DNA of 29,531 bases from Candidatus Woesearchaeota archaeon (GCA_964493885.1 CAZBPV010000001.1:66189-95719), one strand, 5' to 3'; counted from the first letter of the stretch, positions 1-27,300 are shown. The notes: a model not told the origin generated them from the letters alone. A program made the numbers and translations.

Positions 1-2195
1 CCAGTAACCCTTGAAAAGAATCCTGGTGCAGGCTCAGGAACAACTACTGGCTCTCCTTCTTGTATGCTTCTTGGAGTACTAGATTCAAGTGTTGAATATA
101 CCATGCAAGATTGTGTCTGCCCTTCTTTTAATTCATCAAAGCTTACTCCTTGTGAGCATCTAACCTCTTCCCACTCTAAACAGCTTCTGTTTTGCTCCCA
201 ATTATCACAAACACTCCATTCAGTCCATAAAGTGCAATTATATGCAGTATTACAGCTTCCTCCACCTGATGATGTTATTACCCTTGGATTAACAGTCACA
301 AATAAGGTATCTGAACTTGATGAATAATTTTGAGATGAATAATTAACTTTAATTTCATATGTACCTTGAAGCATAAAAGTATATGTTGAGACATTTGGTT
401 TTGATTCATTAACAGGTGTTATTAAAAATCCATCAACCCATAATTTTGCCTGCCCGTCTTCTGTATTAAGAACATCACTTACATTTCCTTCAATTAAAAA
501 GAATTCCATATACTCAACAGTAAGATTATCTGCAACACCATTAAGATATAATTGAACAGAGCTTGGGATTTTGTTGACCGTAGCAGAACTAATAGACTCA
601 TTATATTGATAATTTGCAGATTCTTCTAAAGAACAATTGTATTCATATGTTCCTGCACCAAGAGTTTCAGTAATTGTTTCATTAAACCCTACAGAATCTC
701 CATTTCTAGTTAGATTTCCATTACAAGTTACTGTAAATGATTCGGTATAGTCCACTTCTGTATCATTAATAGTTAATTCTATATTTTGAGAAGCTTTATT
801 AATCTGAAGCCATCCAGAAACACTGCCGTCTGTATAATTTGAACATCCGCTTGTATTATATAAATAACTTACTATGCCATATCCATAAACAGTATTATCT
901 ACATTGCCAGGAATTAAGGTATTATTTGCATATAACTCATAAACACAATCATCATCTCCAGTATTTGTTTCTGTTCCCTGGAAATCAGAAGCAGTTCCAT
1001 AAACAATAGGTGAAGTTCCGGTTACACTCATTCCATCTTTAGGAGATATCTTATTTATAATAAGAGTGCCATTAATACTTGCTTCTGTATAATTCTGGTT
1101 TCCTGATGTATTATAAACATAAACATAACTGCCTACCCCAAGTGTCTGAGTATCAGGAGCAGTAACTGATTCATCATTTCTATATAATTTGCAAGTTAAT
1201 TGAGTAGGGCAACTTACAACAATTTCAGTCTCTATCAAATAATCTTCATTCCAAGTAGGAAGAGCATCTAAACTTAAAATTGGATATGCTTTGTCAACAG
1301 TGTAACTTAATGTTCCAGTTGAATTGCTATTTCCTGCATTATCATTTGCACTCCATGAATAATCATAATCTCCAGCTGCTAAATCACTTACATTTGCATA
1401 ATACATATTCCCTACATTTACTACACCATAGCCAGTTCCTTCAAATTCAAAAACAACACTGCCACTATCTACTCCACTTAAAGAATCATCCCACTGGATA
1501 CTGAATGTATAATCTTTTCCTTCTCCATAAACATTATCTGAAGTATTAATATTTGAGAAATATGCAGGGGTATGATCTAGAATGACAATTCCACTCATAA
1601 CAGAAAGATGTCCTAAAGTATCATTCGCCCTAATAGTATAAGTATAATTACCATCTCCTACTGAACCAGCACTTGGATATCTAAAGATCTCTGTAATCCC
1701 ATCTGAATATGGCCTAGTTTCTGTTATTGAACTAACCGAAGTGACTGTAAACATTATAGTATTTGGATTTGTTTCTGTAACACTGGTATTAACATTAAAA
1801 TAATCTTGTTGTAGAAAAATAGGATTTAAGACAGGAGAAATAATAATTATTTTAGGTGCAATGCTGTCAACCCAGAAATCAATCTCACCAACATCTGTTG
1901 TTCCTATACTATCATTAACTTTTATTTTCCAATTATTATCTCCTTCCAAAGAAGTAATTCCAGTTAGGGGATTATTGCTACAATTAAAATTTTCCCAATC
2001 ATCTAAATTTAATTTATACCAGCAAAAATCAGTTGTAGAATTTAATGTCCCTCCAAAACTCCAATTAATAATTGCAATAGTATCATTATAATTAGTATTT
2101 TCAGGATAAGTTATGTTTACACTGCTTGGCAAGGCACTAACCATCCCTAAGATTAATATTAACCCCAAAAACAAAAATAATTTTTTTGACACCAT
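1..2195 (-). CDS. Secreted surface/adhesin-like protein. The 5' end is complete and the 3' end runs off the left edge (at least 731 aa). Missing from the supplied ORF track.
   Basis: ATG at 2195-2193 with an in-frame upstream stop at 2226-2228. I scanned every minus-frame codon (plus-strand triplets starting at positions divisible by 3) from 2195 to 1 and found no tta/cta/tca. The N-terminus MVSKKLFLFLGLILILGMVSALPSS looks like a signal peptide. The body is beta-rich and dense in N-x-S/T sequons, with repeated ..AND(T/N)xG.. segments. The last visible part carries the Cys/Trp motif CNTAYNCTLWTEWSVCDNWEQNRSC. Confidence 0.8.
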   Translation of the reverse strand, partial: MVSKKLFLFLGLILILGMVSALPSSVNITYPENTNYNDTIAIINWSFGGTLNSTTDFCWYKLNLDDWENFNCSNNPLTGITSLEGDNNWKIKVNDSIGTTDVGEIDFWVDSIAPKIIIISPVLNPIFLQQDYFNVNTSVTETNPNTIMFTVTSVSSITETRPYSDGITEIFRYPSAGSVGDGNYTYTIRANDTLGHLSVMSGIVILDHTPAYFSNINTSDNVYGEGKDYTFSIQWDDSLSGVDSGSVVFEFEGTGYGVVNVGNMYYANVSDLAAGDYDYSWSANDNAGNSNSTGTLSYTVDKAYPILSLDALPTWNEDYLIETEIVVSCPTQLTCKLYRNDESVTAPDTQTLGVGSYVYVYNTSGNQNYTEASINGTLIINKISPKDGMSVTGTSPIVYGTASDFQGTETNTGDDDCVYELYANNTLIPGNVDNTVYGYGIVSYLYNTSGCSNYTDGSVSGWLQINKASQNIELTINDTEVDYTESFTVTCNGNLTRNGDSVGFNETITETLGAGTYEYNCSLEESANYQYNESISSATVNKIPSSVQLYLNGVADNLTVEYMEFFLIEGNVSDVLNTEDGQAKLWVDGFLITPVNESKPNVSTYTFMLQGTYEIKVNYSSQNYSSSSDTLFVTVNPRVITSSGGGSCNTAYNCTLWTEWSVCDNWEQNRSCLEWEEVRCSQGVSFDELKEGQTQSCMVYSTLESSTPRSIQEGEPVVVPEPAPGFFSRVT

Positions 2196-2250
2196 CTTTT
2201 CGTATATAAAATAATTAAACTCTATTTATAAAGTTTATTCTAATCAATTA

Positions 2251-3090
2251 TTATCTAAATGATTTGCTGATATTTGTTCCCCAGAATGAAGGAAGTGGGT
2301 TAGAAACAAATCCATTGAAATCTCCAGAGAAAATATGAGTTAATCCTGGCTCATCTTTGAATTCTTCAAAATGCTCTGAAGCATCATCATATATTTTTTG
2401 TATTATTTTTCTTTCAAAATTCTTCTGAAGCAAGGAACTTGGCTTTAAAATTAAAAAATCTGCCTGCCTTAGTATATTAATATCTAGATTAGAAGAATTC
2501 TGTGAAATAAATAAAATTGTAAGATTTTTATGTCTGGCAATTAATATTAAGTCACTAAGCAATTTATTTGCATTGCTCATAGAATCCCTAGAATTAAATA
2601 AAATTCCACCCTCATCTATCAGTATTATAGAATTATTTCCTATTTCTTCTATTGTATTAACAACTGTAATCCAATTAGGCATTTCATCTGGATTAAATCC
2701 CATTGCATAGCACTTCTTTTTTGTTTTTGCACGGGAATTCTCTAAAAACTTCATACCAAATGCAGTCTTTCCTGTTCCTCTTGCCCCAATAATAACCCCA
2801 ATCTTTGAATCAGACTTATTTACTCCTTCTTCCCACTGAAGATAATTACCTTCTTTAGTATGAACAATCTTGAAGTTTTCATAAAAAGGAATCATTTGCT
2901 CTCTTTTTTGCTTAACTTGTTTTTTCCTTGAACTTTCCTCAACTTTGTCAGCAGTATATTTAGTTGCCTTGTAAATTCCCTTACCAATATAATACGGAGT
3001 TTTCATAAGAAACCATAACCCTTTTCCAATTGTTCCTAAAGCAGAGCCTTTATTTTCTTGTTTTTTCTTGCTCACTTTCTTCTTTGCCAT
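2251..3090 (-). CDS. Small P-loop NTPase, FtsK/HerA/Zot-like by motif pattern
   Basis: 279-aa ORF with an ATG start. Walker A is GARGTGKT and Walker B is SIILIDEGG. These are followed by ARHKNLTILFISQNSSNLDINILRQADFLILKP, which resembles the GRK..Q segment of HerA/FtsK-type ATPases. The N-terminus is Lys-rich. Confidence 0.6.
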   Translation of the reverse strand: MAKKKVSKKKQENKGSALGTIGKGLWFLMKTPYYIGKGIYKATKYTADKVEESSRKKQVKQKREQMIPFYENFKIVHTKEGNYLQWEEGVNKSDSKIGVIIGARGTGKTAFGMKFLENSRAKTKKKCYAMGFNPDEMPNWITVVNTIEEIGNNSIILIDEGGILFNSRDSMSNANKLLSDLILIARHKNLTILFISQNSSNLDINILRQADFLILKPSSLLQKNFERKIIQKIYDDASEHFEEFKDEPGLTHIFSGDFNGFVSNPLPSFWGTNISKSFR

Positions 3091-6305: not shown

Positions 6306-6830
6306 ATGATACAAAATTATAGCAGATATAGGATTTTGCAGGAGTTCTTTAACAATCCTTTGAAAGATTTTCAGATTCGTGAGCTTTCCAGAATAGCAGA
6401 ATTAGCTCAACCCTCTGTTACAAACCATCTAAATGCTTTGCTCAAGGAAAACCTAATCCTTAAGGAGAAAAAAGGGATTTACCCTACATTTAGGGCAAAT
6501 AGAGAAGATGAGATGTTTAAATTTTATAAGAAAATGGACACTCTCTTAAGGTTAAAGCAAACTGGAGTTTTGGAATATATTTATGATTCATGCATGCCTG
6601 ATTCAATAATCTTATTTGGTTCTGCATCAAAAGGAGAAGATATTGCAGAAAGTGATATAGATATATTTGTTCAATCTCCAGATAAAAAACTCTCGCTTGA
6701 AAAGTATGAAAAGGCACTCAATAGAAAGATTACTCTGTTCTTTGAAGGGAATTTCTCAAGACTTAGTAAGGAACTGAAAAACAACATATTAAATGGGATA
6801 ATCATTAGAGGATATCTAAAAGTATTCTAA
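6306..6830 (+). CDS. Winged-HTH plus minimal nucleotidyltransferase (MNT-type) protein
   Basis: The N-terminal segment FQIRELSRIAELAQPSVTNHLNALLKENLI resembles an ArsR-like wHTH. The NTase signature is FGSASKGEDIAESDIDIFV (GS..DxD). The stop lies 1 nt before the next gene. Confidence 0.8.
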   Translation: MIQNYSRYRILQEFFNNPLKDFQIRELSRIAELAQPSVTNHLNALLKENLILKEKKGIYPTFRANREDEMFKFYKKMDTLLRLKQTGVLEYIYDSCMPDSIILFGSASKGEDIAESDIDIFVQSPDKKLSLEKYEKALNRKITLFFEGNFSRLSKELKNNILNGIIIRGYLKVF

Positions 6831-6831
6831 A

Positions 6832-7230
6832 ATGGATTTAATAAAAATAACTCCAGACAAGGAAAGGGCAAGGAGCATAATAAATATGGTTTCTTTAGTT
6901 GAAGAGAGAATAAAACTTCAGGATAAACAGAGAATGTCTGCACTTATAATCGCAGATTATTATGAGATAATAAAAGAGCTCATCACAGCAGTTCTTTTGA
7001 TTGATGGATATAAAACTTTAAGTCACAAGGATTTAATTGATTATTTAAAGGAAAATTATTCTGAATTCAACTTGCAAGAAGTATCAATTCTGGATAATTT
7101 AAGAATTCTGAGAAATAGAATAACCTATGAAGGATTTCTTGTTGAACCCATTTATCTTGATAGAAATGAAACTATTTTCAAGCAACTAATTAGTAAGCTA
7201 AAAAAATTAATTTCTCAGAAATTAAAGTAG
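6832..7230 (+). CDS. HEPN-domain-like partner of the nucleotidyltransferase
   Basis: 132-aa all-helical ORF packed directly against the MNT gene (TAAAATG junction), which is the usual MNT-HEPN arrangement. The motif region reads LRNRITYEG, so the canonical Rx4-6H histidine is absent. Confidence 0.55.
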   Translation: MDLIKITPDKERARSIINMVSLVEERIKLQDKQRMSALIIADYYEIIKELITAVLLIDGYKTLSHKDLIDYLKENYSEFNLQEVSILDNLRILRNRITYEGFLVEPIYLDRNETIFKQLISKLKKLISQKLK

Positions 7231-9528: not shown

Positions 9529-10269
9529 TTAGAGACCTAACCTCTCTGCAAGTTTGTCTCCTGCCACTATCTCAGGAATAACTACCACTTTTGCACCTGC
9601 TTTTTTCAGTTTAGACACAAGCTTGTTGTTTTCACATCTTGCATAAATTTCAACTTCTGGATTAAGCTCTTTTGTAGTTAGTGTAATCATTATATTTGTT
9701 TCTGTTTTTGGAAGAGTAATAATTAATTTCTTTGCATCCTTGATTCCAGCTTTTAATAATACCTCTTCCTGTTCTGCATTCCCTTCCACTACAATGTATT
9801 TTTTTCTTTTCAAAGAAGCAACAACTTCAGGATTTATATCAGTAATCACAAATTTTTCCTTTTTCTCAGATAAAACTCTTGCAACCTCTTCACCAACTCT
9901 TCCACCTCCAGCAATAATTATATGTCCTTTCATATTCCTTAATATACAAGCATACAACTTTGTTTTTAAATATTTCTTTAAATTTCCAGCAAGAATCATG
10001 TCTGCAACACTCCACAACACCCACCAAATAAGAAAAACTCCAACTAATGCAAGAAATATCTCCAAAAGTCTTTCTTGCAATGAAGAAGATTCCTCAAACA
10101 TAAATGCAAGAGTTTGCAGTGTTCTTAAAAAAGAATCCTTAAAAGAAAACTGGCTGATAATAGTAAATCCAACAATTCCAATTATAAATACGCATAAAAT
10201 TGCCAAAAAGAAAATCTTTAATCTTTTAGGAAACTCTTCAATCTCTTTTATTTGCGCCCCTCTTGACAT
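9529..10269 (-). CDS. Two-TM membrane protein with a C-terminal RCK/TrkA-N NAD-binding domain (K+ channel-like, no selectivity filter)
   Basis: Rossmann motif IIIAGGGRVGEEVA preceded by two hydrophobic helices. I place the start at the ATG at 10269 (MSRGAQIKE..), not the track start at 10461, because the extra 64 aa are Cys/Phe-rich and a TATA-like box lies at about 10295-10305. Confidence 0.75.
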   Translation of the reverse strand: MSRGAQIKEIEEFPKRLKIFFLAILCVFIIGIVGFTIISQFSFKDSFLRTLQTLAFMFEESSSLQERLLEIFLALVGVFLIWWVLWSVADMILAGNLKKYLKTKLYACILRNMKGHIIIAGGGRVGEEVARVLSEKKEKFVITDINPEVVASLKRKKYIVVEGNAEQEEVLLKAGIKDAKKLIITLPKTETNIMITLTTKELNPEVEIYARCENNKLVSKLKKAGAKVVVIPEIVAGDKLAERLGL

Positions 10270-10520
10270 TTTTTCCTCTCTTAAATAAAGCATCAAAGCA
10301 TTTATAATTATTTCTAAAGCATGGTGATATTGAGCAAAAATTATTTCTAAAAAGAACCCAAGATTATTAAGAAGTTTAAATGAATTATTGCAAGCACAAG
10401 GATTAAGCCCTTCTTTAAAGAAAAGAGTTTTAAGACTGCATAAATCCAAGGATATTATCAAAGTAATTAAATCTCAATTAATCACAGATTCTCAAAAATT
10501 AGAAAGATTAAGAAACTTAG

Positions 10521-10594
10521 CTTATACTTGCCCAGTTTGATTGAACTTTTTCATTGCCTGCTCAAGAATAACTTGAGGCGCATACCCTTTTCTG
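10521..10594. repeat. Direct repeat copy A (74 bp), 72/74 identical to 11191-11264
   Basis: cttatacttgcccagtttgattgaactttttcattgcctgctcaagaataacttgaggcgcatacccttttctg read directly in the sequence. It differs from copy B only at two adjacent bases. Confidence 0.95.
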
Positions 10595-11134: not shown

Positions 11135-11190
11135 AAATTATAGAGTATACTATCATTTATAAGTGTTTTGAAAATCTATAGAAACTATAT

Positions 11191-11264
11191 CTTATATCTG
11201 CCCAGTTTGATTGAACTTTTTCATTGCCTGCTCAAGAATAACTTGAGGCGCATACCCTTTTCTG
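11191..11264. repeat. Direct repeat copy B (74 bp)
   Basis: cttatatctgcccagtttgattgaactttttcattgcctgctcaagaataacttgaggcgcatacccttttctg. Confidence 0.95.
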
Positions 11265-11353
11265 CTGCATGCTTTGGCAAAATCATCATAAACTGCTTGA
11301 TCTACATTATAATCAAGTTTTCTTTTCTTTGCTCCAGGTGGTGTTGCTGCCAT
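11192..11353 (-). CDS. Small ribbon-helix-helix (CopG/Arc-like) protein, 53 aa
   Basis: My manual translation is MAATPPGAKKRKLDYNVDQAVYDDFAKACSRKGYAPQVILEQAMKKFNQTGQI*. The pattern is a basic N-tail, a short strand (LDYNV), helix A, G, then helix B. It is below the ORF-track size cutoff. Confidence 0.55.
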   Translation of the reverse strand: MAATPPGAKKRKLDYNVDQAVYDDFAKACSRKGYAPQVILEQAMKKFNQTGQI

Positions 11354-11408
11354 AAAAGTATTTAGAATTATTAGGTATATAAATTAAATGTTTTGAATAC
11401 ATAGAAAA

Positions 11409-11500
11409 ACGCCCCAACCAAAGAGCTAACTATCTTGGCTTCTGAAGAATTGGGTTTTTACTATGAATTGTTGTTGATGTAGGGGATTTTTAAGAGTTGT
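11409..11500. repeat. Left copy of a ~90-bp imperfect direct repeat flanking the Fic gene; it starts with a tRNA-3'-end-like string
   Basis: acgccccaacca...atcttggc...tgggttttta.tatga.ttgttgttgatg..gggga.ttttaag.gttgt aligns by eye with 12549-12640 at roughly 80-85% identity with a 1-nt indel. Confidence 0.8.
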
Positions 11501-11538
11501 CAGTCACAGGGGAATAACTGGAGAATAGACGACTACAT

Positions 11539-12465
11539 TTATCTCTTTTTTCTCTTTTGTAGTCCCCCTTTGATTTCTTTTTTATACTGCTTTACTAAAA
11601 ATTCTAACATTGGTTTTATATCATGAAATTGAGAGTAAACTTGAAGCGCTTTGTAGTATCTCTGCCTATCTTCTAGATAAATATTAATTGGAGGATAGTT
11701 ATTCCTAATTAAAATATAATTTAATAACAATCTTCCGACTCTTCCATTGCCATCTTGAAAAGGGTGTATATGTTCAAATTGATTGTGCATTATTGTAGCC
11801 AATATTAAAGGATTAAATTTAGCCTTGTTTTCTTTATACCAAACAACTAATTCATTTAACGCATTATTTAGTTTATTTATAGGAGTTCCAATATGAATTA
11901 TTTCTCCATACGAGTTCTTTATAACTACCTGAACACCCCTAAACTTACCGGCAAATGATTTGGATTTCTCAAAACATAACTTATGCAGTTTAAGAAGAAA
12001 ATCAAGATTAATTTGCTCATTGGTATCTCGAATAAATTTTATTGCCCCTGCAACTCCCAAGGTTTCAAGCTCTTCCGCATCATTGGTTTTTGGTTTATCT
12101 TTTAATATTTCTTTAACTTCATTTAGTTCTACAGTTGAACCCTCAATTGCATTTGTGTTATAGACAAATTCCTCTGTAAATTTCTTCCAATCAGTGTTAT
12201 ACAAGTGAATTACATTAATTTCAGAGATTTTATTTAATCTTTCAATTTCTTTTGGAGTAAGCTCAAAATCAAAAACCTTTGTGTTATTTGCGTTTATTTG
12301 CTCAAGAATAAACTCTTTTGTATCTTCCTTTCTTTTTATTAATTCATTCTCAGATAAATCAACCCCGAGATACTTTCTAATTTTCTTAACCTTGCCCTTT
12401 TCTCTATAAGAGTGAGCAAGATAATACTTTACCTTCTTGCCTTCTTTTTTTTGTTCAATAAACAT
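11539..12465 (-). CDS. fic: Fic-domain protein (putative AMP-transferase) with an internal inhibitory motif
   Basis: Canonical Fic motif HPFQDGNGRVGR. An upstream (S/T)xxxE(G/N) inhibitory-helix motif is present as TNAIEG. 308 aa with an ATG start. Confidence 0.9.
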   Translation of the reverse strand: MFIEQKKEGKKVKYYLAHSYREKGKVKKIRKYLGVDLSENELIKRKEDTKEFILEQINANNTKVFDFELTPKEIERLNKISEINVIHLYNTDWKKFTEEFVYNTNAIEGSTVELNEVKEILKDKPKTNDAEELETLGVAGAIKFIRDTNEQINLDFLLKLHKLCFEKSKSFAGKFRGVQVVIKNSYGEIIHIGTPINKLNNALNELVVWYKENKAKFNPLILATIMHNQFEHIHPFQDGNGRVGRLLLNYILIRNNYPPINIYLEDRQRYYKALQVYSQFHDIKPMLEFLVKQYKKEIKGGLQKRKKR

Positions 12466-12548
12466 AATATATCTAGGGGACTACATTTTATAAATGTTGT
12501 TATTTGTAGTCGCCTAAAAATAGTGCAACGCCCCGTCAATGAGGTATT

Positions 12549-12640
12549 ACGCCCAACCGAACTTCTCACCATCTTGGCATCCTGAGGGAGTGGGTTTTTA
12601 GTATGATTTGTTGTTGATGGGGGGAATTTTTAAGGGTTGT
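12549..12640. repeat. Right copy of the ~90-bp direct repeat flanking the Fic gene
   Basis: acgcccaaccgaacttctcaccatcttggcatcctgagggagtgggtttttagtatgatttgttgttgatggggggaatttttaagggttgt. Confidence 0.8.
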
Positions 12641-12662
12641 GGACTATCTTGATGTGACAGAA

Positions 12663-12908
12663 TCATTGTTTCTTTTTATGATAAAAGTCTAACAAGATTA
12701 TTTTATCTTCTTGTTTTAGGTAAGTATAAGATAATCTAAATGGTTTGAGATATAACTCTTTTGTGCCCTTTCTAACATTTCTCATGGGTTTTCCTATTTC
12801 TGGATTATTGATTATCTTAACTATTAATTTCATTAATCGCTCTTTATAATTTGAGTCTAATTTACTGAATATTTTACTGAAGTTTGGATCATAATCAAGC
12901 TTCACCAT
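12663..12908 (-). CDS. RelE/ParE-family type II toxin
   Basis: 81 aa. It shows the ..NPEIGKPMRNVRKGTKELYLKPFRLSYTY....IILLDFYHKK pattern typical of RelE/ParE. It overlaps the upstream antitoxin gene by 7 nt (ATGGTGA). Confidence 0.8.
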   Translation of the reverse strand: MVKLDYDPNFSKIFSKLDSNYKERLMKLIVKIINNPEIGKPMRNVRKGTKELYLKPFRLSYTYLKQEDKIILLDFYHKKKQ

Positions 12909-13168
12909 TTTTTCATTTCTTTTAAGAAATCTTCAGAATCCATACTAATAAATTCTCCTCTTTCAAATTTTTTCCAAGCTTCTTCAGTTCTTTTGGCAAA
13001 ATCTAAATCTTCTTTAAGATTCTCATCCATATCACTAGCTTTTTTGAGAATTAATTTATCTCCTCCTTGAATAACTAGTATTTTTTCTCCTTCCTTAAAA
13101 TTTTGCCTCATTTCTTGAGGAATTACTATTTGTCCTTTAGAACTCATTCTTGTTATATTTATATCCAT
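12902..13168 (-). CDS. AbrB/SpoVT/MazE-type antitoxin
   Basis: The N-terminal SSKGQIVIPQEMRQNFKEGEKILV is a SpoVT-AbrB swapped-hairpin signature. The C-terminal half is acidic, and the gene is translationally coupled to the toxin. Confidence 0.8.
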   Translation of the reverse strand: MDINITRMSSKGQIVIPQEMRQNFKEGEKILVIQGGDKLILKKASDMDENLKEDLDFAKRTEEAWKKFERGEFISMDSEDFLKEMKKW

Positions 13169-13405
13169 AGTAAGATTAATCTTACACCATATTTAAATGT
13201 TTTGTTTTTCATGAAATCTCACAGAAACGTCAAAAAGGTATTACGCCCCCAGATGATTTTCAAATCATCGTGCGTTCGACAGCAAAGCTGGAATTTGTTT
13301 ACAAATTAGAACGCCCTAGTTCAAAACACAGTGTGGATTTGGACTAGTAGTTTTTTCAAGGAAATTACGCCCCAACCGAGCTTTATAGTAAAATGTTATC
13401 CTCAA

Positions 13406-13425
13406 GGGATTTCTTATGAAATCCC
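13406..13425. repeat. Perfect 8-bp inverted repeat with a 4-nt loop (gggatttc ttat gaaatccc), 24 nt beyond the tRNA-Glu 3' end
   Basis: Read directly in the sequence. A second perfect 8-bp palindrome, gatgattt tc aaatcatc, lies at 13252-13269. Confidence 0.7.
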
Positions 13426-13448
13426 ACCAAAATCACAAAATACTAAAA

Positions 13449-13521
13449 CGCCCCGACCGGGATTCGAACCCGGGTTCCAGCCTTGAAAGGGCTGTGTCCT
13501 TGGCCTCTAGACGAACGGGGC
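13449..13521 (-). tRNA. tRNA-Glu (anticodon UUC), 73 nt, no encoded CCA
   Basis: Manual cloverleaf of GCCCCGTTCGTCTAGAGGCCAAGGACACAGCCCTTTCAAGGCTGGAACCCGGGTTCGAATCCCGGTCGGGGCG. Anticodon stem CAGCC/GGCTG with loop CTTTCAA; T arm CCGGG-TTCGAAT-CCCGG. The acceptor stem has 6 GC pairs plus one U-U at 7:66. A T-tract follows. Confidence 0.85.
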
Positions 13522-13596: not shown

Positions 13597-13743
13597 ATGC
13601 CAGATAAACTTGACAGATGTGTTGTTGATGTAGAAAAGAAAATCAAAAAAGGTGAGTTAGCTAAGGAGTATGAAGATAAGAAGACAGGCAAGACTAAGAA
13701 AACAAATCCTTATGCTATATGCAAAGCTAGAATGAATAAATAA
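13597..13743 (+). CDS. Small Lys-rich protein, 48 aa, hypothetical
   Basis: My manual translation is MPDKLDRCVVDVEKKIKKGELAKEYEDKKTGKTKKTNPYAICKARMNK*. The TATA box is at the correct spacing. It is below the ORF-track cutoff. Confidence 0.45.
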   Translation: MPDKLDRCVVDVEKKIKKGELAKEYEDKKTGKTKKTNPYAICKARMNK

Positions 13744-14228: not shown

Positions 14229-14352
14229 TGAGCCTACACGGATTTGAACCGTGGACCCCCGCCTCTCTTAGACTTCTCTAAAAGATTCAGCAACCCTAAT
14301 GAATTGCAGTCATATAAGAGCGGTGCTCTAAACCAGGCTGAGCTATAGGCTC
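14229..14352 (-). tRNA. tRNA-Ile (anticodon UAU) with a 48-nt intron at the canonical 37/38 position. Exons 14313-14352 and 14229-14264; intron 14265-14312.
   Basis: Manual fold: acceptor GAGCCTA/TAGGCTC, D stem GCTC/GAGC, anticodon stem CCGCT/GGCGG, loop C-U-UAU-A-A after splicing, T arm CACGG-TTCAAAT-CCGTG. The intron forms an exact hBHBh' motif. The 4-bp helix is CTTA(32-35):TAAG(intron 43-46). It is flanked by the 3-nt bulges T36-A37-i1 and i47-i48-A38, each containing a splice site. The outer helix is GACT(i2-5):AGTC(i39-42). Confidence 0.85.
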
Positions 14353-19900: not shown

Positions 19901-20713
19901 CTAAAAGTTTATTTTTAATCCAACTCTTCCGGTTACTTCATCTTTAACATTGCTATTACTATCTGCAAAATTATGGCCGTATGTTGCACCTGCTGTAAGA
20001 CTGGCTTTATCATTAAATTTATATTCTGCTTGAAGTCCTACTTCTAAACTAATTATATTCTCTTTTTTTGAATCATTAACATCATAACCGCCTACTCTTC
20101 CTGTAATTTTGTTATCCTCTAGTGTTAAGGCTGGACCTCCACTTACATTTAACGTAAATTTGTCTCCTGGAATAAAATCATATCCTGCTCCAAGTCTTAA
20201 TTTTGTTGCTTTGCTTTTTAAGTCAAGATAGCCATTTGAAGTAGTTTCACTTTCATCCATTTCACCATACTCTGCTCCAGCATAAAATTCACTTCTTCTG
20301 TCCTTTGCCCCTACTTTTACTCCCATAACTGGCATTGGGTTTGGATTATCTTCACTATTTAATGCAAATTTCATCCCAAAGTAAGGTTCTGCATATGCTT
20401 TCCATTCAGCGGATTCAGTTTGAATTTGTCTTTGACTTAATCTGTTTTCAGAATTTGATGTTTTGTTTAATTGAGCAGTTTCTGAAATTGGATATTTTGG
20501 AGATTCTTGAATAAGAGTTTTAGTTTCTTCTTTTCTTTCAAGTTTATTATCTTTCCACTCATACCCAATTGGAGGTTGAACTGTTCCTACAGACATTGTT
20601 CTTTGAGATGGGATTGTTGGGGTTTCTGTTTTATGACAAGATGTAGTTGTTACACTACCTAATCCAAACAATCCTACTATTCCTAATTTTGCTAAAAGTC
20701 CTAATTTTGCCAT
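19901..20713 (-). CDS. Exported protein with an N-terminal hydrophobic anchor plus Cys and a C-terminal ~165-aa beta-barrel-like domain ending in Phe
   Basis: The N-terminus is MAKLGLLAKLGIVGLFGLGSVTTTSC. The C-terminal domain has alternating hydrophobic beta-strand patterns (KLRLGAGYDF, FTLNVSGGPALTL, ISLEVGLQAEYKF, ASLTAGATYGHNF, VTGRVGLKINF*). It is about 55% identical by eye to the C-terminus of the upstream gene product. Confidence 0.6.
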   Translation of the reverse strand: MAKLGLLAKLGIVGLFGLGSVTTTSCHKTETPTIPSQRTMSVGTVQPPIGYEWKDNKLERKEETKTLIQESPKYPISETAQLNKTSNSENRLSQRQIQTESAEWKAYAEPYFGMKFALNSEDNPNPMPVMGVKVGAKDRRSEFYAGAEYGEMDESETTSNGYLDLKSKATKLRLGAGYDFIPGDKFTLNVSGGPALTLEDNKITGRVGGYDVNDSKKENIISLEVGLQAEYKFNDKASLTAGATYGHNFADSNSNVKDEVTGRVGLKINF

Positions 20714-20714
20714 T

Positions 20715-22781
20715 TTAGAATTTTACAGTAACTCCTGCTCTTGCTGTTAAGTCATCGGTTACATTAGAATTATCATCTGCAAAGTTATGTCCATATACTG
20801 CACCTGCTGTAAGGCTTACTCTATTATTTAATCTGTACTCTAAACCTGCTCCAACTTCTGCTCCAAATATTGTTTCTTTTTTAGAATCATCAACATCATA
20901 GTCCCTTACTCTTCCAGTGATTTTATTTTCTTCTCTTGTTACTCTTAAACCAGCTGAAACATTTCCAACTAATTTTCTTTCTTTATTTGAGCTTAATTTT
21001 CCTCCAACCATGAATGTTGTTGCAGTGCTTTTTAAATCAAGATATCCTTCTGGAGTTGTTTCATTTGCATCCATTTCCCCTCTTTCAATTCCTAAGTAAA
21101 TTGAGCCATTTTCCTTTTCTACTCCAATTTCAACACCAAAAACAGGCATTGGGTCTGGAGTATCTTCTGAACTTAATGCATATTTCATTCCTGCATAAGG
21201 AGCTATCTTTAAAGTGTATGGATTTGGAGCTCTTAGAGGCAATGGATTTCTTGGTTGTTCTACAGGTTTTTGGGTTGATTTCCCAGAAGCAGGAGCTAGT
21301 TGTATTGGAGTTTTTTGAAATTCTGGAGCTGGTTGAATTGGATTATAAATAATTGGTTCTGGTTTAACCTTTTCAACTACTGCAGACTCTTTGTAATCAT
21401 CTGTAAGTTCTTGATAATCTTTTCTAAGAGTTTCAACCTCTTTTCTTAACTTTTCTGTATTATCAATATTTATTGATACCACCTTAGTTAATAGTCTTAT
21501 ATCTTCTCTATTTCTTATTATTCCTTTATCCGCCATATCTCCAATATCTTTTGGTTTTTCTGGTTCTTTATAATCCTCAACAACATCCTTAGGTTCTTTA
21601 ACTGGATCTACTCCAGGTTCTAATTTAACTTCTTTAACTGGCTTTGGTTCTGAGATTACAACAATTTCTTCTAGTTGATTTATATTTGTTCTTTCTTCTT
21701 TTACTTGAACTGCTGTGTATTCAGGTTGAACTGCAGTTTTTAGGGATTTAACTTCTTCATTAGGAAAAAGACTATATGTTATTATCCCAGCTAATCCAAT
21801 TCCTGCTCCAACAAGGCCCCATTTGAATCTTTTCTTAGGGTCATTCCATATATATTTTATTGTTGTTATTGGATTTTTTAAAGATTCTATGACTTTGCTT
21901 GCTAAACTGGGTTTTTTGAATTCTCTGGCGTGATGTTTTGGTTTAAGGGGGTCAAATCCAGATTTATTAGGGACAGCATTACGAGGGAGTCCAACTTCAT
22001 CTGTTAAATCATCACCAAAGATTTCCTGTCTTGTTACTGATATTCCTGGAATAATAATTCCATAGTTGTTTTTTAATACACTATCAATATTCCTTATTGC
22101 CTCTTCTTTTGATTGTGAATTCATTCGATTTACTTCATTAAATACTTTTACTACTTCAGTTTCTATAGGCACAATAGAACCGTCTCCTTTTTTTTCAAAT
22201 AATTCTGATTGGTGGTATTGTGATGTTGGAGATGCATGAGCTCTTATCATTCTTTCTGTTACCATATTGAGGAGGTTCATACATTCGTTTGGAGGCATTA
22301 TAGGTCTTGGATTATTAATAACAACCTTTTTTTTATTTAACCCCTTATTCTTAAGATACTCTCTTGCTCTTTTTTTTAGACTTTTACCCATTAGTTCTGT
22401 TATGTCTTCTCTACTCTGTGGTGTTGCCCTAATCACATCTTCCTCAACTTGTTGAAACACTACTCTTTGACCTTCCTCATTTAATTCTCCCCATAATGCT
22501 CTCTTTTGTTGATATAATGCTTCAATATTTAAGTCCACCCTTTGAGTAATAGTTGTATTTTTCAAATTTTTTGCAAAAACAATTGGATTATTTTGGGCCA
22601 TCTCCCACATAATGTTTTTTGTCATTGCTTCTGCATAAAGTTTTTCTGAATACTTTTCAAAATATTCTTCACCAGGCCTGATTTCTTCTTGGTTTGGGTT
22701 TTGAGGTGTTTGGGTATCCATTTTAGTATTAATCACAGTATCTGTAGCATGTTCCCCATGAACAGATTTGTATGCAGTCAT
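20715..22781 (-). CDS. Bitopic membrane protein: cytoplasmic N-domain, one TM helix, a Pro/Glu/Lys-rich and coiled-coil linker, then a C-terminal beta-barrel-like domain
   Basis: The TM helix is WGLVGAGIGLAGIITYSLF. The linker contains EPKPVKEVKLEPGVDPVKEPKDVVEDYKEPEKPKD. The C-terminus reads ...VSLTAGAVYGHNFADDNSNVTDDLTARAGVTVKF*. An alternative start at 22721 (MDTQTPQ) would remove the 53-nt overlap with the upstream gene. Confidence 0.6.
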   Translation of the reverse strand: MTAYKSVHGEHATDTVINTKMDTQTPQNPNQEEIRPGEEYFEKYSEKLYAEAMTKNIMWEMAQNNPIVFAKNLKNTTITQRVDLNIEALYQQKRALWGELNEEGQRVVFQQVEEDVIRATPQSREDITELMGKSLKKRAREYLKNKGLNKKKVVINNPRPIMPPNECMNLLNMVTERMIRAHASPTSQYHQSELFEKKGDGSIVPIETEVVKVFNEVNRMNSQSKEEAIRNIDSVLKNNYGIIIPGISVTRQEIFGDDLTDEVGLPRNAVPNKSGFDPLKPKHHAREFKKPSLASKVIESLKNPITTIKYIWNDPKKRFKWGLVGAGIGLAGIITYSLFPNEEVKSLKTAVQPEYTAVQVKEERTNINQLEEIVVISEPKPVKEVKLEPGVDPVKEPKDVVEDYKEPEKPKDIGDMADKGIIRNREDIRLLTKVVSINIDNTEKLRKEVETLRKDYQELTDDYKESAVVEKVKPEPIIYNPIQPAPEFQKTPIQLAPASGKSTQKPVEQPRNPLPLRAPNPYTLKIAPYAGMKYALSSEDTPDPMPVFGVEIGVEKENGSIYLGIERGEMDANETTPEGYLDLKSTATTFMVGGKLSSNKERKLVGNVSAGLRVTREENKITGRVRDYDVDDSKKETIFGAEVGAGLEYRLNNRVSLTAGAVYGHNFADDNSNVTDDLTARAGVTVKF

Positions 22782-24318: not shown

Positions 24319-27300
24319 ATGGTTTTTAAGAGGTATATCAAAAGAGGTAACAAAGTTTACGGTCCTTATATTTATCATAATGTGAAACATAATGGAAAAG
24401 TTGTTTCTACTTATCTTGGCAGGCATAAACCTGAAGAAGAAAATAATTCTCTATCTATAAACAAAGGTAGTGTAATAAAAAAGGAGGGGAAGTTAACTAC
24501 AAATTTCCCTTATAAAAAACTTCTCCTCTTTTTATTTATTTCAGTTGTTGCAGTTGCTTTTTTGTTTTTATTAGTTAGATTTGATTTTGGTTTGACTGGT
24601 AGTGCAACTCTTTCAATTGATGATATTTATAGAGATGGAGATTTTCTTAAAGGAGATTTGCAGTTTATTTTACATCAGTCAGAACTAATGCCTGCAAATA
24701 CACAAGTGATAATAAATAGTGCTGGTTTTGAATATATTTATAATTTAAGTGATTTGATTTCTGAAACTCCTGTAGAAGGAGAGTATTATCTTAAAAACAC
24801 AGAAATTTCCGGAAGTGGATTAGGTTACTCTGCAGATGCAGAAAGATTTCCAATTGTTAATTTTGTTTTGGGAATTTTTGCTGCTGCAGAAGATGACAGC
24901 GGAAAAACTTATACTCTTCCTGTTGAACCAATAAATGAAACAGAAGAGGAAAATGAAACACTTCCTGCAGAAGAAAATCCAACTGAAGAAAGTTCTGAAA
25001 ACCAGACTCCAGAAGAGCCAGTTATTGAAAATGAAACTCCAACCCGAACAATAACAGGGCAATTTACTTCTTTAATTTCTGGATTTCTTGGAATCTTTCC
25101 AAGGCTTGTAGGACATGCTTCTTTAGAATTAGTTGATGAAATAGAAGGAAATGTTAGTGCAAATTCTTCTTTTGAATATCCTCTTTCAAGTGAAGAGACT
25201 GCACAGATTATTTCCTCTGAACATAATATTAGTTTAATAATTGAAAATAATCAAGCAATTGTCACAACTGAGTATATAGGAGATGAAATCAAAACACTTG
25301 AAATAAGTATAGATGACTTAAATATTTCTGCTGCAGATGGAGACTTAGTTATTAGTTTTGTTTATAACAATGCTGAGCTAATGACTGCAAGCAAAGAAAT
25401 AACTATTGTTAGTGAAACTAGCAATGAAACTAATGAAACTCTTTATACTCTTCCCTTTGAGCCACTGATACCTGAAGAAATTCCTATAGAACAACTAGAA
25501 AATGTTACTGGAAATGAATCTATAAAAGGAATTAATATTAATTTAGTTGATGGAGGGGGGAATAGAATAGGTAACTATACTATTATTAATAGGGAAGATT
25601 CAAAATTGGATGTTTTAATAAATAATGTTAAGATAAATGGGACAAGAGAGATATTTTCAAACACACCTTTAATTGATATTTCTATTTCTGGTGTTAAGAA
25701 TGTTAGTAAAAATGTTACTATGATGTTAAACGAGGTAAATGATTCTATTCTTAGAACAGCAGTTTTAGCATCTGAGCCTTTTGAAGTAGATAATGTTACT
25801 ATTACTCTAGCTAAGAAAGGAAATGTTAATGTGATTATGAAGTGTGAGAAATTTAGTGTTGAGAATCTAACTTGTACTAATTGGAGTAGAATAGATATAC
25901 CTTTTGTAGATAATGGGGAGAGTATAACTTTTACAGTTACAGAGTTTAGTGGTTATGCTGGTGGGGAGATAGGAATAATCAATGTTCAGTCATATCCTGT
26001 TGTGGGAGGTAATTGGACTGTTGAATTTAATACCACCGGAGTAGAGAACTTAACAATCACTGCTGTTGATGATACTACTTGGAGTAATGAGACAGAAGAT
26101 GAAGATTTGAAATTTTTAGAGATTAGATGTGGAAGTGAGACTCTAGAGTATGAATGGGTTAATAATTCAGTGTTTATTGAGGATTATAATTGTTCTGAGA
26201 ATGGTTATGAAATTAGCAAAGTTATTACTTATGGAAAACACCATTTAAGATTTGATTATGGAAATGATACTGCTTATGCACATAATAATGCTGGTTATGT
26301 TTGGCAGTCTGTTGAATATGGGACTCTTGGGGGTCCTAGTGCTTGGAATTTTATTATGGGGTATAAGTTTAAGCCAATTGAAAATGGACAAATATCTGAA
26401 CTATGTGGTTATTTTAATGGAACAAAGACTATAAAAATCTGGAATGCTACTAGGTCTGAATTAGCATCAGCATCTGTTACTTCTTTAGGAGGAAATCCAC
26501 TTGGTAGTTGGATGTGTACTCCAATAACTCCACTTAGTGTTATAGCAGGAACTGAGTATTATGTTGGTGTTTGCTTAGTTGGAAGTGGGGGTTATTATCG
26601 AGAACTTTCACCAACCTTGTTGCCTATCGCTTCTAATGGTGTTAATATTACTTACAGCTTTTATTATAGTACAACAGGGTGTACTTTTGCAGGTGATCCA
26701 ACTCCAGATACTAATTATATGTATGGCATGGCGGATATTTATTTTAATGCGACTGCAACTCCAATACAGTCTGCTACAATATATGCAGAGGATGTTACTT
26801 ATGGGACTTGTTATTTTAATCCCACCACCACCAAAGCTGATAATTATATTGCTGCTGATTTTGATACTTATAGGGGGGCTGCTAAATTTAATATTAGCTC
26901 TTTGCCAGCAGATGCCATTATAACAAAAGTAGAATTTTACGCTGCACCTTATTCCTGCTCAGCTAATCATGATTTAGATGTATTTGATCTTATAAATGAT
27001 CCAGTTACTACTACTGGAAGCGGTGTTCTTTGGAATGATGCTAGAGATGGTACACAGTATGTTGTTGATAGTTATGCTTTAAGAACTCCTGCAACAGGAG
27101 GAACTTGCGTTGCAGCAACTTATGGAGGAGTATATTTGGGAGTGGATGCAGCAGCAGATTTACAGAGTAGAATTTCTTCTCCTGGTTGGTTTGCACTTGG
27201 TTTTAGTGCTAATAGTACAGCATATGGTTATTGGTATGGACATACTACAGCTTATGAGCCATATATTAAGGTTGAATATACCCTTCCTCCCAATTTATGT

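Follow-up and report, generated by a model that had tools for sequence, protein, structure and literature searches.

A probable array of very small, integrase-less gene cassettes at the 3′ end of a tRNA-Glu gene in a DPANN archaeon

Introduction

DPANN archaea have tiny genomes and depend on hosts. To our knowledge, few integrases or transposons have been described in them, and the exchange of their defence and addiction genes is poorly understood. The DNA analyzed here, referred to throughout as the window, is a stretch of 29,531 nucleotides from a Candidatus Woesearchaeota archaeon (GCA_964493885.1, CAZBPV010000001.1:66189-95719). Downstream of its tRNA-Glu gene, fragments of the tRNA 3′ end are interspersed with a toxin-antitoxin (TA) pair and a Fic gene, and no integrase is found beside them. 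The question raised by this locus is how such a ladder was built. A first-pass annotation of the sequence had proposed that repeated insertion into the 3′ end of tRNA-Glu left part of the tRNA behind each time, in an array that might be integron-like or mobilised in trans, and had cautioned that the fragments could be chance matches. Our answer, to which we attach a probability of about 0.55, is that positions 11409-13447 are a hypervariable array of very small integrase-less cassettes of 0.05-1.1 kb.

The window has a G+C content of about 31% and encodes Lhr, TrmB and an archaeal-type YchF, and its closest sequences are metagenome-assembled genomes (MAGs) of Woese-, Pace- and Nanoarchaeota. 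We place the host in the Nano-/Pace-/Woesearchaeota group of the DPANN archaea. Genome and metagenome scans were performed with the tRNA-Glu gene and its DUF5684 neighbour as queries; loci used for comparison carry L numbers, and the host genome itself was read over the 29.5 kb of the window.

Results

Copies of the tRNA-Glu 3′ end

The array is anchored by a tRNA-Glu(UUC) gene on the minus strand (13449-13521), predicted by ARAGORN and matched by the Rfam tRNA model at 54 bits; tRNA-Glu genes 85-99% identical to it are present on Woese-, Pace- and Nanoarchaeota contigs. The heptamer GGGGCGT (ACGCCCC on the plus strand), which is the tRNA-Glu 3′ end plus one nucleotide, occurs five times in the window, at 11409, 12528, 13243, 13367 and 13448. 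All copies are on the minus strand, that of the tRNA, inside 11409-13454 and not more than 2 kb downstream of tRNA-Glu. Shuffling gave an expected count of 0.08, with none of 100 shuffles reaching five, and among the GC-rich 7-mers of the window GGGGCGT is the commonest. The 11-mer GGTYGGGGCGT was found three times against an expectation of 0.02, and the site at 12549 is the same motif minus one G. These partial tRNA copies, of 7-12 nucleotides each, bound the units of the array, with cores at 13448, 13367, 13243, 12549, 12528 and 11409.

The strings and coordinates reported in the first-pass annotation were all present in the sequence, including a 13-mer at 12542-12554 and 13236-13248 that lies within a 21-nt repeat of 90% identity. 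Its observation of a ladder of tRNA ends is confirmed, and its caution about chance is answered by counts far above expectation. Only the fragment at 13311, which reads GGGCGT, is weak and unproven. The same fragment was considered as the right end of a zinc-finger cassette known from L057 (see below), and the alignment was not significant. A 14-nt match, TGTTGTTGATGTAG, at 13620-13633 falls within the conserved small gene p48 and was treated as chance.

Organisation of the array

The array was read on the minus strand from the tRNA outward, and all of its features are on that strand. Core 0 (GGTCGGGGCGT, 13448-13458), the tRNA-Glu 3′ end plus one nucleotide, is where docking and crossover are proposed to take place. 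After it comes a cargo-less unit of 70 nt (13378-13447) with the left-end motif TTTTAGTATTTTGTGATTTTGGTGGGAT and a long imperfect hairpin, for which the fold z-score was -4.2 and none of 200 shuffles was equally stable. A search of 452 kb of loci located the motif TTGTGATWWTNGRGTGAT exclusively at a distance of 9-10 nt behind a tRNA 3′ end or a core, namely at tRNA-Glu in L007 and at tRNA-Gly in L052 and L053; the window copy has one mismatch and fits the relaxed form TTGTGATNNTNGNGNGAT. The 3′ half of the 70-nt unit is a degenerate third copy of the right arm described below (right-arm profile, E=1e-4) and lies before core 1 (GGTTGGGGCGT, 13367-13377). Beyond core 1 there is an orphan cassette left end whose cargo is absent (13342-13366). 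Together with the core it is identical to L057 1110-1143 at 30 of 33 nucleotides, and in L057 this left end carries a gene for a 191-aa zinc-finger protein. Core 2 (GGGGGCGT, 13243-13250) is preceded by a hairpin (GATGATTT/AAATCATC; fold z=-1.9), and core 2 with the following 15 nt is identical at 22/22 positions to L057 1084-1105.

Cassette A (684 nt, 12559-13242) consists of a left end, AATACCTTTTTGACG (13228-13242), a TATA promoter, an AbrB/MazE-type antitoxin gene (12902-13168; Pfam MazE_antitoxin, E=3e-7), a ParE/RelE-type toxin gene (12663-12908; Pfam ParE_toxin, E=1e-5) and right arm r2 (12559-12640). It is closed by core 3 (GGTTGGGCGT, 12549-12558), which is one G shorter. Then follow a 14-nt stub, AATACCTCATTGAC, which is a truncated cassette left end, and core 4, GGGGCGT (together 12528-12548); this core-stub-core layout is also present at L057 1084-1118. 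Cassette B (1108 nt, 11420-12527) comprises a palindrome-flanked TATA promoter (12479-12511), the Fic gene (11539-12465; Pfam Fic, E=2e-18) and right arm r1 (11420-11500). Both cassettes, A and B, have a core on either side and contain TA or Fic genes only, as would be expected of cis-mobilizable elements (CIMEs). Core 5 (GGTTGGGGCGT, 11409-11419) is the distal end of the 2039-nt island and probably the junction with the ancestral neighbour of the tRNA; a small gene, p53, begins 56 nt downstream of it.

The Fic open reading frame (ORF) itself lies between two palindromes of about 33 nt with the form GACTACA..TGTAGTC, one round the TATA box (12479-12511) and the other over the stop codon (11531-11563). 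The same layout with co-varying sequence (e.g. GTGACCACA..GTGGGCAC) was seen in the Fic cassettes of L051-L054 and L057. These palindromes may represent an operator or a second layer of module boundaries.

Right arms and the cores they carry

Alignment of 11409-11500 with 12549-12640 gave identity at 75 of 93 positions (81%) with two 1-nt indels, in agreement with the earlier description of repeats of about 90 bp, roughly 80-85% identical, that bracket the Fic gene (11539-12465). On either strand, r1 and r2 folded no better than shuffled sequences (z=+0.34 to +1.15), and the arms are therefore neither structured RNAs nor attC-like. Rfam searches of the window (E<=1) and of the r1 region 11380-11540 (E<=10) returned just two tRNAs and noise. 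A likeness of the repeats to the tRNA D-loop, also suggested by the first-pass annotation, was statistically marginal. When the repeats were tested as decayed tRNAs beyond the 3′-terminal 11 nt, the tRNA-Glu profile matched r1 with an nhmmer E-value of 1.7, the repeat profile matched tRNA-Glu with 0.04, and Rfam gave no tRNA match on the repeats at the thresholds above; because the searches in both directions were marginal, no weight is placed here on the repeats being whole decayed tRNA-Glu genes.

The cores at the ends of the arms are more informative. All four complete arm-borne cores (two in the window, one in L051 and one at the start of L057) read GGTT within CGGTTGGGGCGT, and so does a fifth, that of r2, in which one G is missing. 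Every tRNA-Glu gene examined, by contrast, reads GGTC or GGAC. The 12-mer CGGTTGGGGCGT is also the most conserved block of the alignment, while the arms have diverged to a mean column identity of 66%. Conservation of this block in diverged arms, together with its difference from the tRNAs, argues that the core travels with the cassette and is under constraint.

Comparison of the locus with its relatives

The segment 13446-24443 is collinear with L007, L009, L010 and L011, and collinearity stops exactly at the tRNA-Glu 3′ end. The cassette proteins are absent from these four syntenic loci. A different assembly of this organism contains two contigs that break no more than 10 nt from the end of the tRNA.

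The flanks of L057, a close relative, match those of the window: the p53 region is 94% identical in nucleotides (the protein 98% in amino acids), TrkA 90% and the metallophosphoesterase gene 78% in nucleotides. Different cassettes are found upstream of p53 in L057, in the order core, Fic-B; core, stub AATACCTTTTTGACG; core, the 191-aa zinc-finger gene; core, p53. Fic-B has 34% amino acid identity to the Fic protein of the window. The 22-mer GGGGCGTAATACCTTTTTGACG is identical in the two loci and yet different cargo follows it, and the left end TT(T/C)CTTGAAAAAACTACTAGTC has the zinc-finger gene behind it in L057 and none in the window. The modules to the left of cores are the real tRNA, the arm of about 90 bp, hairpins and stubs, and those to the right are three recurrent left ends, TTTTAGTATTTTGTGAT.., AATACCTTTTTGACG and TTTCCTTGAAAAAACTACTAGTC. 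Left and right modules pair in differing combinations across the window, L057, L003, L007 and L051, and the only sequence common to all junctions is GGGGCGT. Such varied pairings could be explained by reciprocal exchange inside the 7-nt core, which would yield them.

The far side of the insertion site is marked by p53 (11192-11353, minus strand), which encodes a conserved DPANN protein of 53 aa. It is a core gene and not cargo, with more than 180 DPANN protein clusters at 75-96% identity and 98% identity in L057. The gene is located just downstream of tRNA insertion sites in two lineages, at tRNA-Glu here and at tRNA-Trp in L062-L069, and is not beside such sites in L061 or L070-L073. In the species with the closest p53 homologue the gene is not adjacent to a tRNA, and no further alleles were gained there. 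We also searched for an empty tRNA-Glu-to-TrkA allele via TrkA homologues and found none; TrkA is a conserved 246-aa DPANN gene with a variable neighbourhood, and p53 is the better boundary gene. The p53 protein has no Pfam match, and from its sequence, judged by eye, it may be of the ribbon-helix-helix type.

Several other features were noted in this flank. Between p53 and TrkA, L057 carries an intact free-standing gene for a LAGLIDADG-type homing-endonuclease-like protein of 203 aa (2119-2730, minus strand; Pfam LAGLIDADG_3, 27.4 bits), of which the window has a truncated remnant, about 440 bp shorter, at about 10340-10540 on the plus strand. A 77-nt direct repeat (10518-10594 and 11188-11264, 96% identical) duplicates the C-terminal codons of p53. 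The 670-bp segment between its copies, with the membrane protein gene p147 and a chimeric 47-aa ORF, is absent from L057, an indel mediated by homologous repeats and not by tRNA-end cores. The TrkA/RCK ORF at 9529-10461 (minus strand) is 310 aa long with a TTG start, and all of the roughly 120 homologues listed cover just the C-terminal ~79% of it; its true length is probably 246 aa with a start near 10269.

The same pattern at other tRNA genes

Homologues of the window Fic protein with 79-83% amino acid identity are encoded directly behind tRNA-Gly(GCC) in L051, L052 and L053, and a homologue of 61% identity lies behind tRNA-Glu in L054-L056 with a tRNA-end copy after it. Behind the Fic cassette, L052, L053 and L054 repeat the 3′ end of the anchoring tRNA itself, and L051 has a foreign fragment, GCGGGCGC. 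The order in L053 is tRNA-Gly, Fic, GGTCCGCGCA, VapB-ParE, GGTCCGCGCA, that is, a ladder built from the tRNA-Gly end. In L003, tRNA-Glu is followed by an HsdM pseudogene and an NYN gene and then by a fragment.

Occupied and empty alleles were found for this family of sites. At tRNA-Trp of one groundwater species, upstream of the p53 orthologue, there are three alleles: empty (L062, with the p53 orthologue 67 nt after the unoccupied tRNA-Trp), one with a TA cassette of 563 bp (L063 and others) and one with a further insert of 43 bp (L064). Each insertion is accompanied by an exact 11-nt repeat, CTCCGTGCCCA, and the flanks are identical. At tRNA-Glu, L009 and L010 differ by 107 bp at the tRNA end with a 15-nt repeat, and the site is empty in L011; for the site in the window, the variation seen is the different cassettes of L057. 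Over all loci, the 3′-terminal 10-mer of the tRNA recurs downstream of nine tRNAs and upstream of one.

A homologous insert of about 60 nt (..GTTCGATACCCCAAGGAGGGCAC.. with two hairpins) was found in L006 (5551-5620) and L046 (8256-8333), behind tRNA-Glu in one genome and tRNA-Ser in the other, each copy ending with the 3′ end of the local tRNA. Similar cargo-less inserts of 22-147 nt follow tRNAs in L004, L005, L008, L010, L019 and L032.

Search for a recombinase

All 26 window ORFs of at least 100 aa and four smaller ones were scanned for domains; six ORFs of 74-87 aa and the two giant ORFs at the ends were left out. No integrase, tyrosine recombinase, transposase or Cas1 domain was detected in the scanned ORFs, and no recombinase was found in the gene tables of about ten related arrays (including L003, L051-L057 and L062-L069), which agrees with the absence of an integrase noted by the first-pass annotation. 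An element-encoded integrase beside an att site was seen neither in the window nor in the arrays of L003, L051-L057 and L062-L069, and Cas1 or family B polymerase domains were likewise absent from the window and the related arrays. Four pattern scans of viral contigs, with the repeat, the tRNA-Glu 3′ end, the TTGTGAT left-end motif and the 60-nt insert of L006/L046, gave no match.

Other features of the window

A second tRNA gene, for tRNA-Ile(UAU), is located at 14229-14352 (minus strand; Rfam 52.6 bits). It has an intron of about 49 nt in the anticodon loop and is missed by ARAGORN without intron mode. The gene adjoins the DUF5684 gene, and this pairing is kept in L009, L010, L011 and L023. 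Two giant ORFs, 3-2225 (minus strand, >741 aa) and 24319-29529 (plus strand, >1737 aa), run off the edges of the window and probably encode surface proteins; the right-hand one and a large L006 ORF have similar N-termini. The ORFs 19901-20713 and 20715-22781 (minus strand) match bacterial outer-membrane beta-barrel families (DUF481, E=9e-9; OMP_b-brl, E=7e-8 and 1e-6), which is unexpected in an archaeon without an outer membrane. At 6306-7230 (plus strand) a gene with helix-turn-helix and nucleotidyltransferase (MNT-like) domains is followed by a 132-aa ORF without a Pfam match, and the two may be an additional TA pair outside the array.

Discussion

The comparisons show the anatomy of the array, the polymorphism of its cassettes, the combinatorial junctions and the lack of a recombinase nearby, and all of these have to be accounted for. 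We favour, at the same odds of slightly better than even, an integrase-less mini-cassette array that would have arisen at the tRNA 3′ end through site-specific recombination in trans. Each cassette would supply its own promoter and cargo (AbrB-ParE or Fic), its distal arm would finish in the tRNA 3′-end mimic CGGTTGGGGCGT, and conservative site-specific recombination would insert and exchange cassettes. The GGTT of the arm cores against GGTC or GGAC in the tRNAs, together with the conserved 12-mer, favours a cassette-carried (attP-like) core over a filled-in target duplication. The C/T difference between cores and tRNA would place the crossover 3′ of that position, inside GGGGCGT, the 7 nt common to all junctions; 7 nt is also the usual overlap length of tyrosine recombinases. 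A crossover there would keep the tRNA intact at every event and leave a copy of the core between successive cassettes. The recombinase would come from elsewhere; the likeliest candidate is a tyrosine recombinase whose gene is in another part of the genome or on a helper element. New cassettes would presumably enter beside the tRNA and push older ones outward, and later deletion of cargo would leave stubs and units consisting of ends only.

The repeated insertion proposed by the first-pass annotation is borne out by the non-chance fragments, the stop of synteny, the L057 cassettes and the presence/absence alleles. What it had named as grounds for abandoning the idea, a motif spread genome-wide and boundaries without indel polymorphism, turned out the opposite way on both counts. 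Its term trans-mobilised is favoured by the comparative evidence, the recombinase and hence the chemistry being deduced.

Several points weigh against recombination in trans. No recombinase was identified within the 29.5 kb of genome, no excised circle or attP-like free form was seen, and there are no dyad-symmetric binding sites beside the core. For an integrase that targets tRNAs, 11 nt of identity is short. With lengths of 22-107 bp, some inserts could not have entered as double-stranded circles and must be deletion remnants, an origin documented for one left end only. Related arm motifs at four tRNAs with different cores would be hard to reconcile with one sequence-specific integrase. Finally, the arrays of L051 and L019 have other tRNAs as their anchors and yet contain Glu-type cores, for which secondary-site integration or later homologous exchange would be needed.

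Two explanations would keep mobility and change the agent. The units could be eroded relics, each of a former provirus or plasmid of several kb that had integrated in tRNA-Glu by its own tyrosine integrase, and of which a streamlined, deletion-biased DPANN genome would have kept TA genes, Fic and attR scars. Fragments of tRNA genes left by integration of mobile elements are common in archaea (PMC9897764), several cores are degenerate, stubs and orphan ends exist, and the L003 unit contains a fragment of an HsdM pseudogene. We nevertheless consider this reading unlikely, as single-gene units of about 1 kb bounded by tRNA-end copies occur in at least six independent genomes at three tRNAs with no integrase remnant, the tRNA-Trp alleles differ by a clean 563-bp unit in flanks otherwise 100% identical in the population, and conservation of the arm-borne 12-mer while the arms drift is not predicted by decay. 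Alternatively, the units could be non-autonomous elements moved in trans by a transposase with target specificity or a Cas1-type casposase, for which the tRNA T-arm would act as a leader and whose staggered cuts would give filled-in target duplications of 11-15 bp. Casposons target the 3′ ends of tRNA genes, depend on the T-loop region, duplicate 14-15 bp on insertion and form tandem arrays sharing one duplication (PMC5137440, PMC4779613). Consistent with such habits, several tRNAs have repeats whose first nucleotide lies 2-3 nt into the T-stem. The two repeats at tRNA-Trp measure exactly 11 nt and the one in L009 measures 15 nt. Fic cassettes that are homologous to each other bear the sequence of the local tRNA both at tRNA-Gly and at tRNA-Glu, and very short inserts (43 bp) would be easily explained. 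This was examined by a shuffle test for inverted ends and by the constancy of the duplication. Inverted end motifs were weakly significant in three of eight cassettes (p about 0.02-0.03), while the other five had no terminal inverted repeats, and repeats measured 11, 11, 13, 15 and ~23-40 nt, so that over all cases their length varies from 10 to about 40 nt. Moreover, the GGTT shared by arm-borne cores is not that of the resident tRNAs (GGTC/GGAC), so they are not copies of a local target; Glu-type cores also occur in arrays on other tRNAs; and no Cas1, PolB or transposase is near any array. Transposition was down-weighted because of the inconsistent inverted ends, and we regard it as rather improbable.

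Two further readings have very little in their favour. A true integron array without an integrase, or cluster of attC sites lacking an integron-integrase (CALIN), with the ~90-bp repeats as attC, comes to mind since most archaeal integrons belong to this class, are known from Nanoarchaeota and contain many TA cassettes (Ghaly et al. 2022, PMC9668308); here too, units of one or two genes are followed by a repeat of about 90 bp, and core 3 contains GTTGGGC, which fits GTTRRRY. Yet the repeats do not fold (z=+0.3 to +1.2), there is no upstream inverse core RYYYAAC, the r1 core GTTGGGG violates GTTRRRY and each cassette is equipped with a promoter. At its head the array has a tRNA instead of attI/intI, its conserved block is the 3′ end of that tRNA, and no IntI was found in the scanned window ORFs. 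The defining attC and intI features are thus absent, as are the core genes of casposons, and the term integron-like used earlier holds as an analogy only. Equally remote is an origin without any mobility, by chance matches, local tandem duplication of the tRNA region or an RNA or regulatory element shared by neighbours. The position of repeats upstream of Fic and p53, with the TATA-like CTTAAAAAT, and their weak likeness to the tRNA 5′ half would suit such an origin; against it, the statistics exclude chance, there is neither an Rfam match nor a stable fold, every gene has its own promoter nearer by, close relatives differ in their cassettes, and empty-site alleles exist.

Recombination in trans at one tRNA could be part of something wider. 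We put forward, tentatively and at less than even odds, a DPANN gene-capture system in which the 3′ ends of several tRNAs serve as attI-like docks for an enzyme acting in trans with a crossover of about 7 nt. The docks may be Glu, Gly and Trp, and probably Ser and Ile as well, and the captured units may be promoter-bearing mini-cassettes (Fic, ParE/RelE TA pairs, NYN and others) ending in a mimic of the tRNA acceptor strand. Such a system may be a functional analogue of integrons, independently evolved and tRNA-anchored. If true, this would be a new kind of short recombination site mimicking the tRNA 3′ end, and it would point to a recombinase yet to be found. A tRNA-anchored cassette system without a local recombinase would explain hypervariable islands and the frequent assembly breaks of MAGs at tRNA genes. 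For annotation, it means that the boundaries of cassettes can be marked by pieces of a tRNA end of 7-12 nt, which are far too short for tRNA finders.

Comparison with known systems

By analogy, the array appears to work like tandem accretion at a tRNA with CIME-type units and to be organised like an integron or CALIN. Tandem accretion of tRNA islands and CIMEs, known from Streptococcus and other bacteria, and archaeal integrated elements with partial tRNA copies at their borders are the closest parallels. They likewise target the 3′ end of a tRNA gene, have direct repeats matching this end and stack several elements at one tRNA, and CIMEs are likewise att-flanked units without an integrase whose presence varies between strains. 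The units here are 10-100 times smaller (0.05-1.5 kb, one or two genes), and the repeats are 7-15 nt in length as against typically 15-60 nt, with 44 bp in a Pyrococcus example (PMC9897764). An integrase-bearing partner was seen in none of the roughly ten arrays studied here, related arm motifs occur at no fewer than four tRNAs, and the host is a DPANN archaeon. The array differs from classical tRNA islands in unit size, repeat length, consistent absence of an integrase and use of several tRNAs.

With integrons and CALINs the array shares ordered cassettes of one or two genes, each with a cassette-specific arm of about 90 bp and a short core, a 7-nt core at all junctions, TA and defence cargo, a recombinase absent from the array and content varying between relatives. 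It differs in lacking the attC hairpin, the R″/R′ inverse cores and intI/attI; its dock is a tRNA 3′ end, its cassettes have their own promoters, and its core is an acceptor-strand mimic rather than GTTRRRY. Family 2 casposons resemble the array in their target, which is located at, or overlaps with, a tRNA 3′ end adjacent to the T-loop, in their short direct repeats (14-15 bp, against 11-15 in the present arrays) and in their tandem arrays split by a single copy. The array has no Cas1, PolB or other casposon core gene, its units are far smaller, its inverted repeats are inconsistent, and its repeat is carried by the cassette (the GGTT variant) and not copied from the local target. A last parallel is provided by the pdif modules of Acinetobacter plasmids, which depend on XerC/XerD and have 28-bp dif-like inverted half-sites. 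They too are small gene modules, often with TA or resistance genes, that use short sites and a host recombinase encoded elsewhere; the pdif site belongs to bacterial plasmids, whereas the site described here is a tRNA 3′-end mimic without dyad symmetry on an archaeal chromosome.

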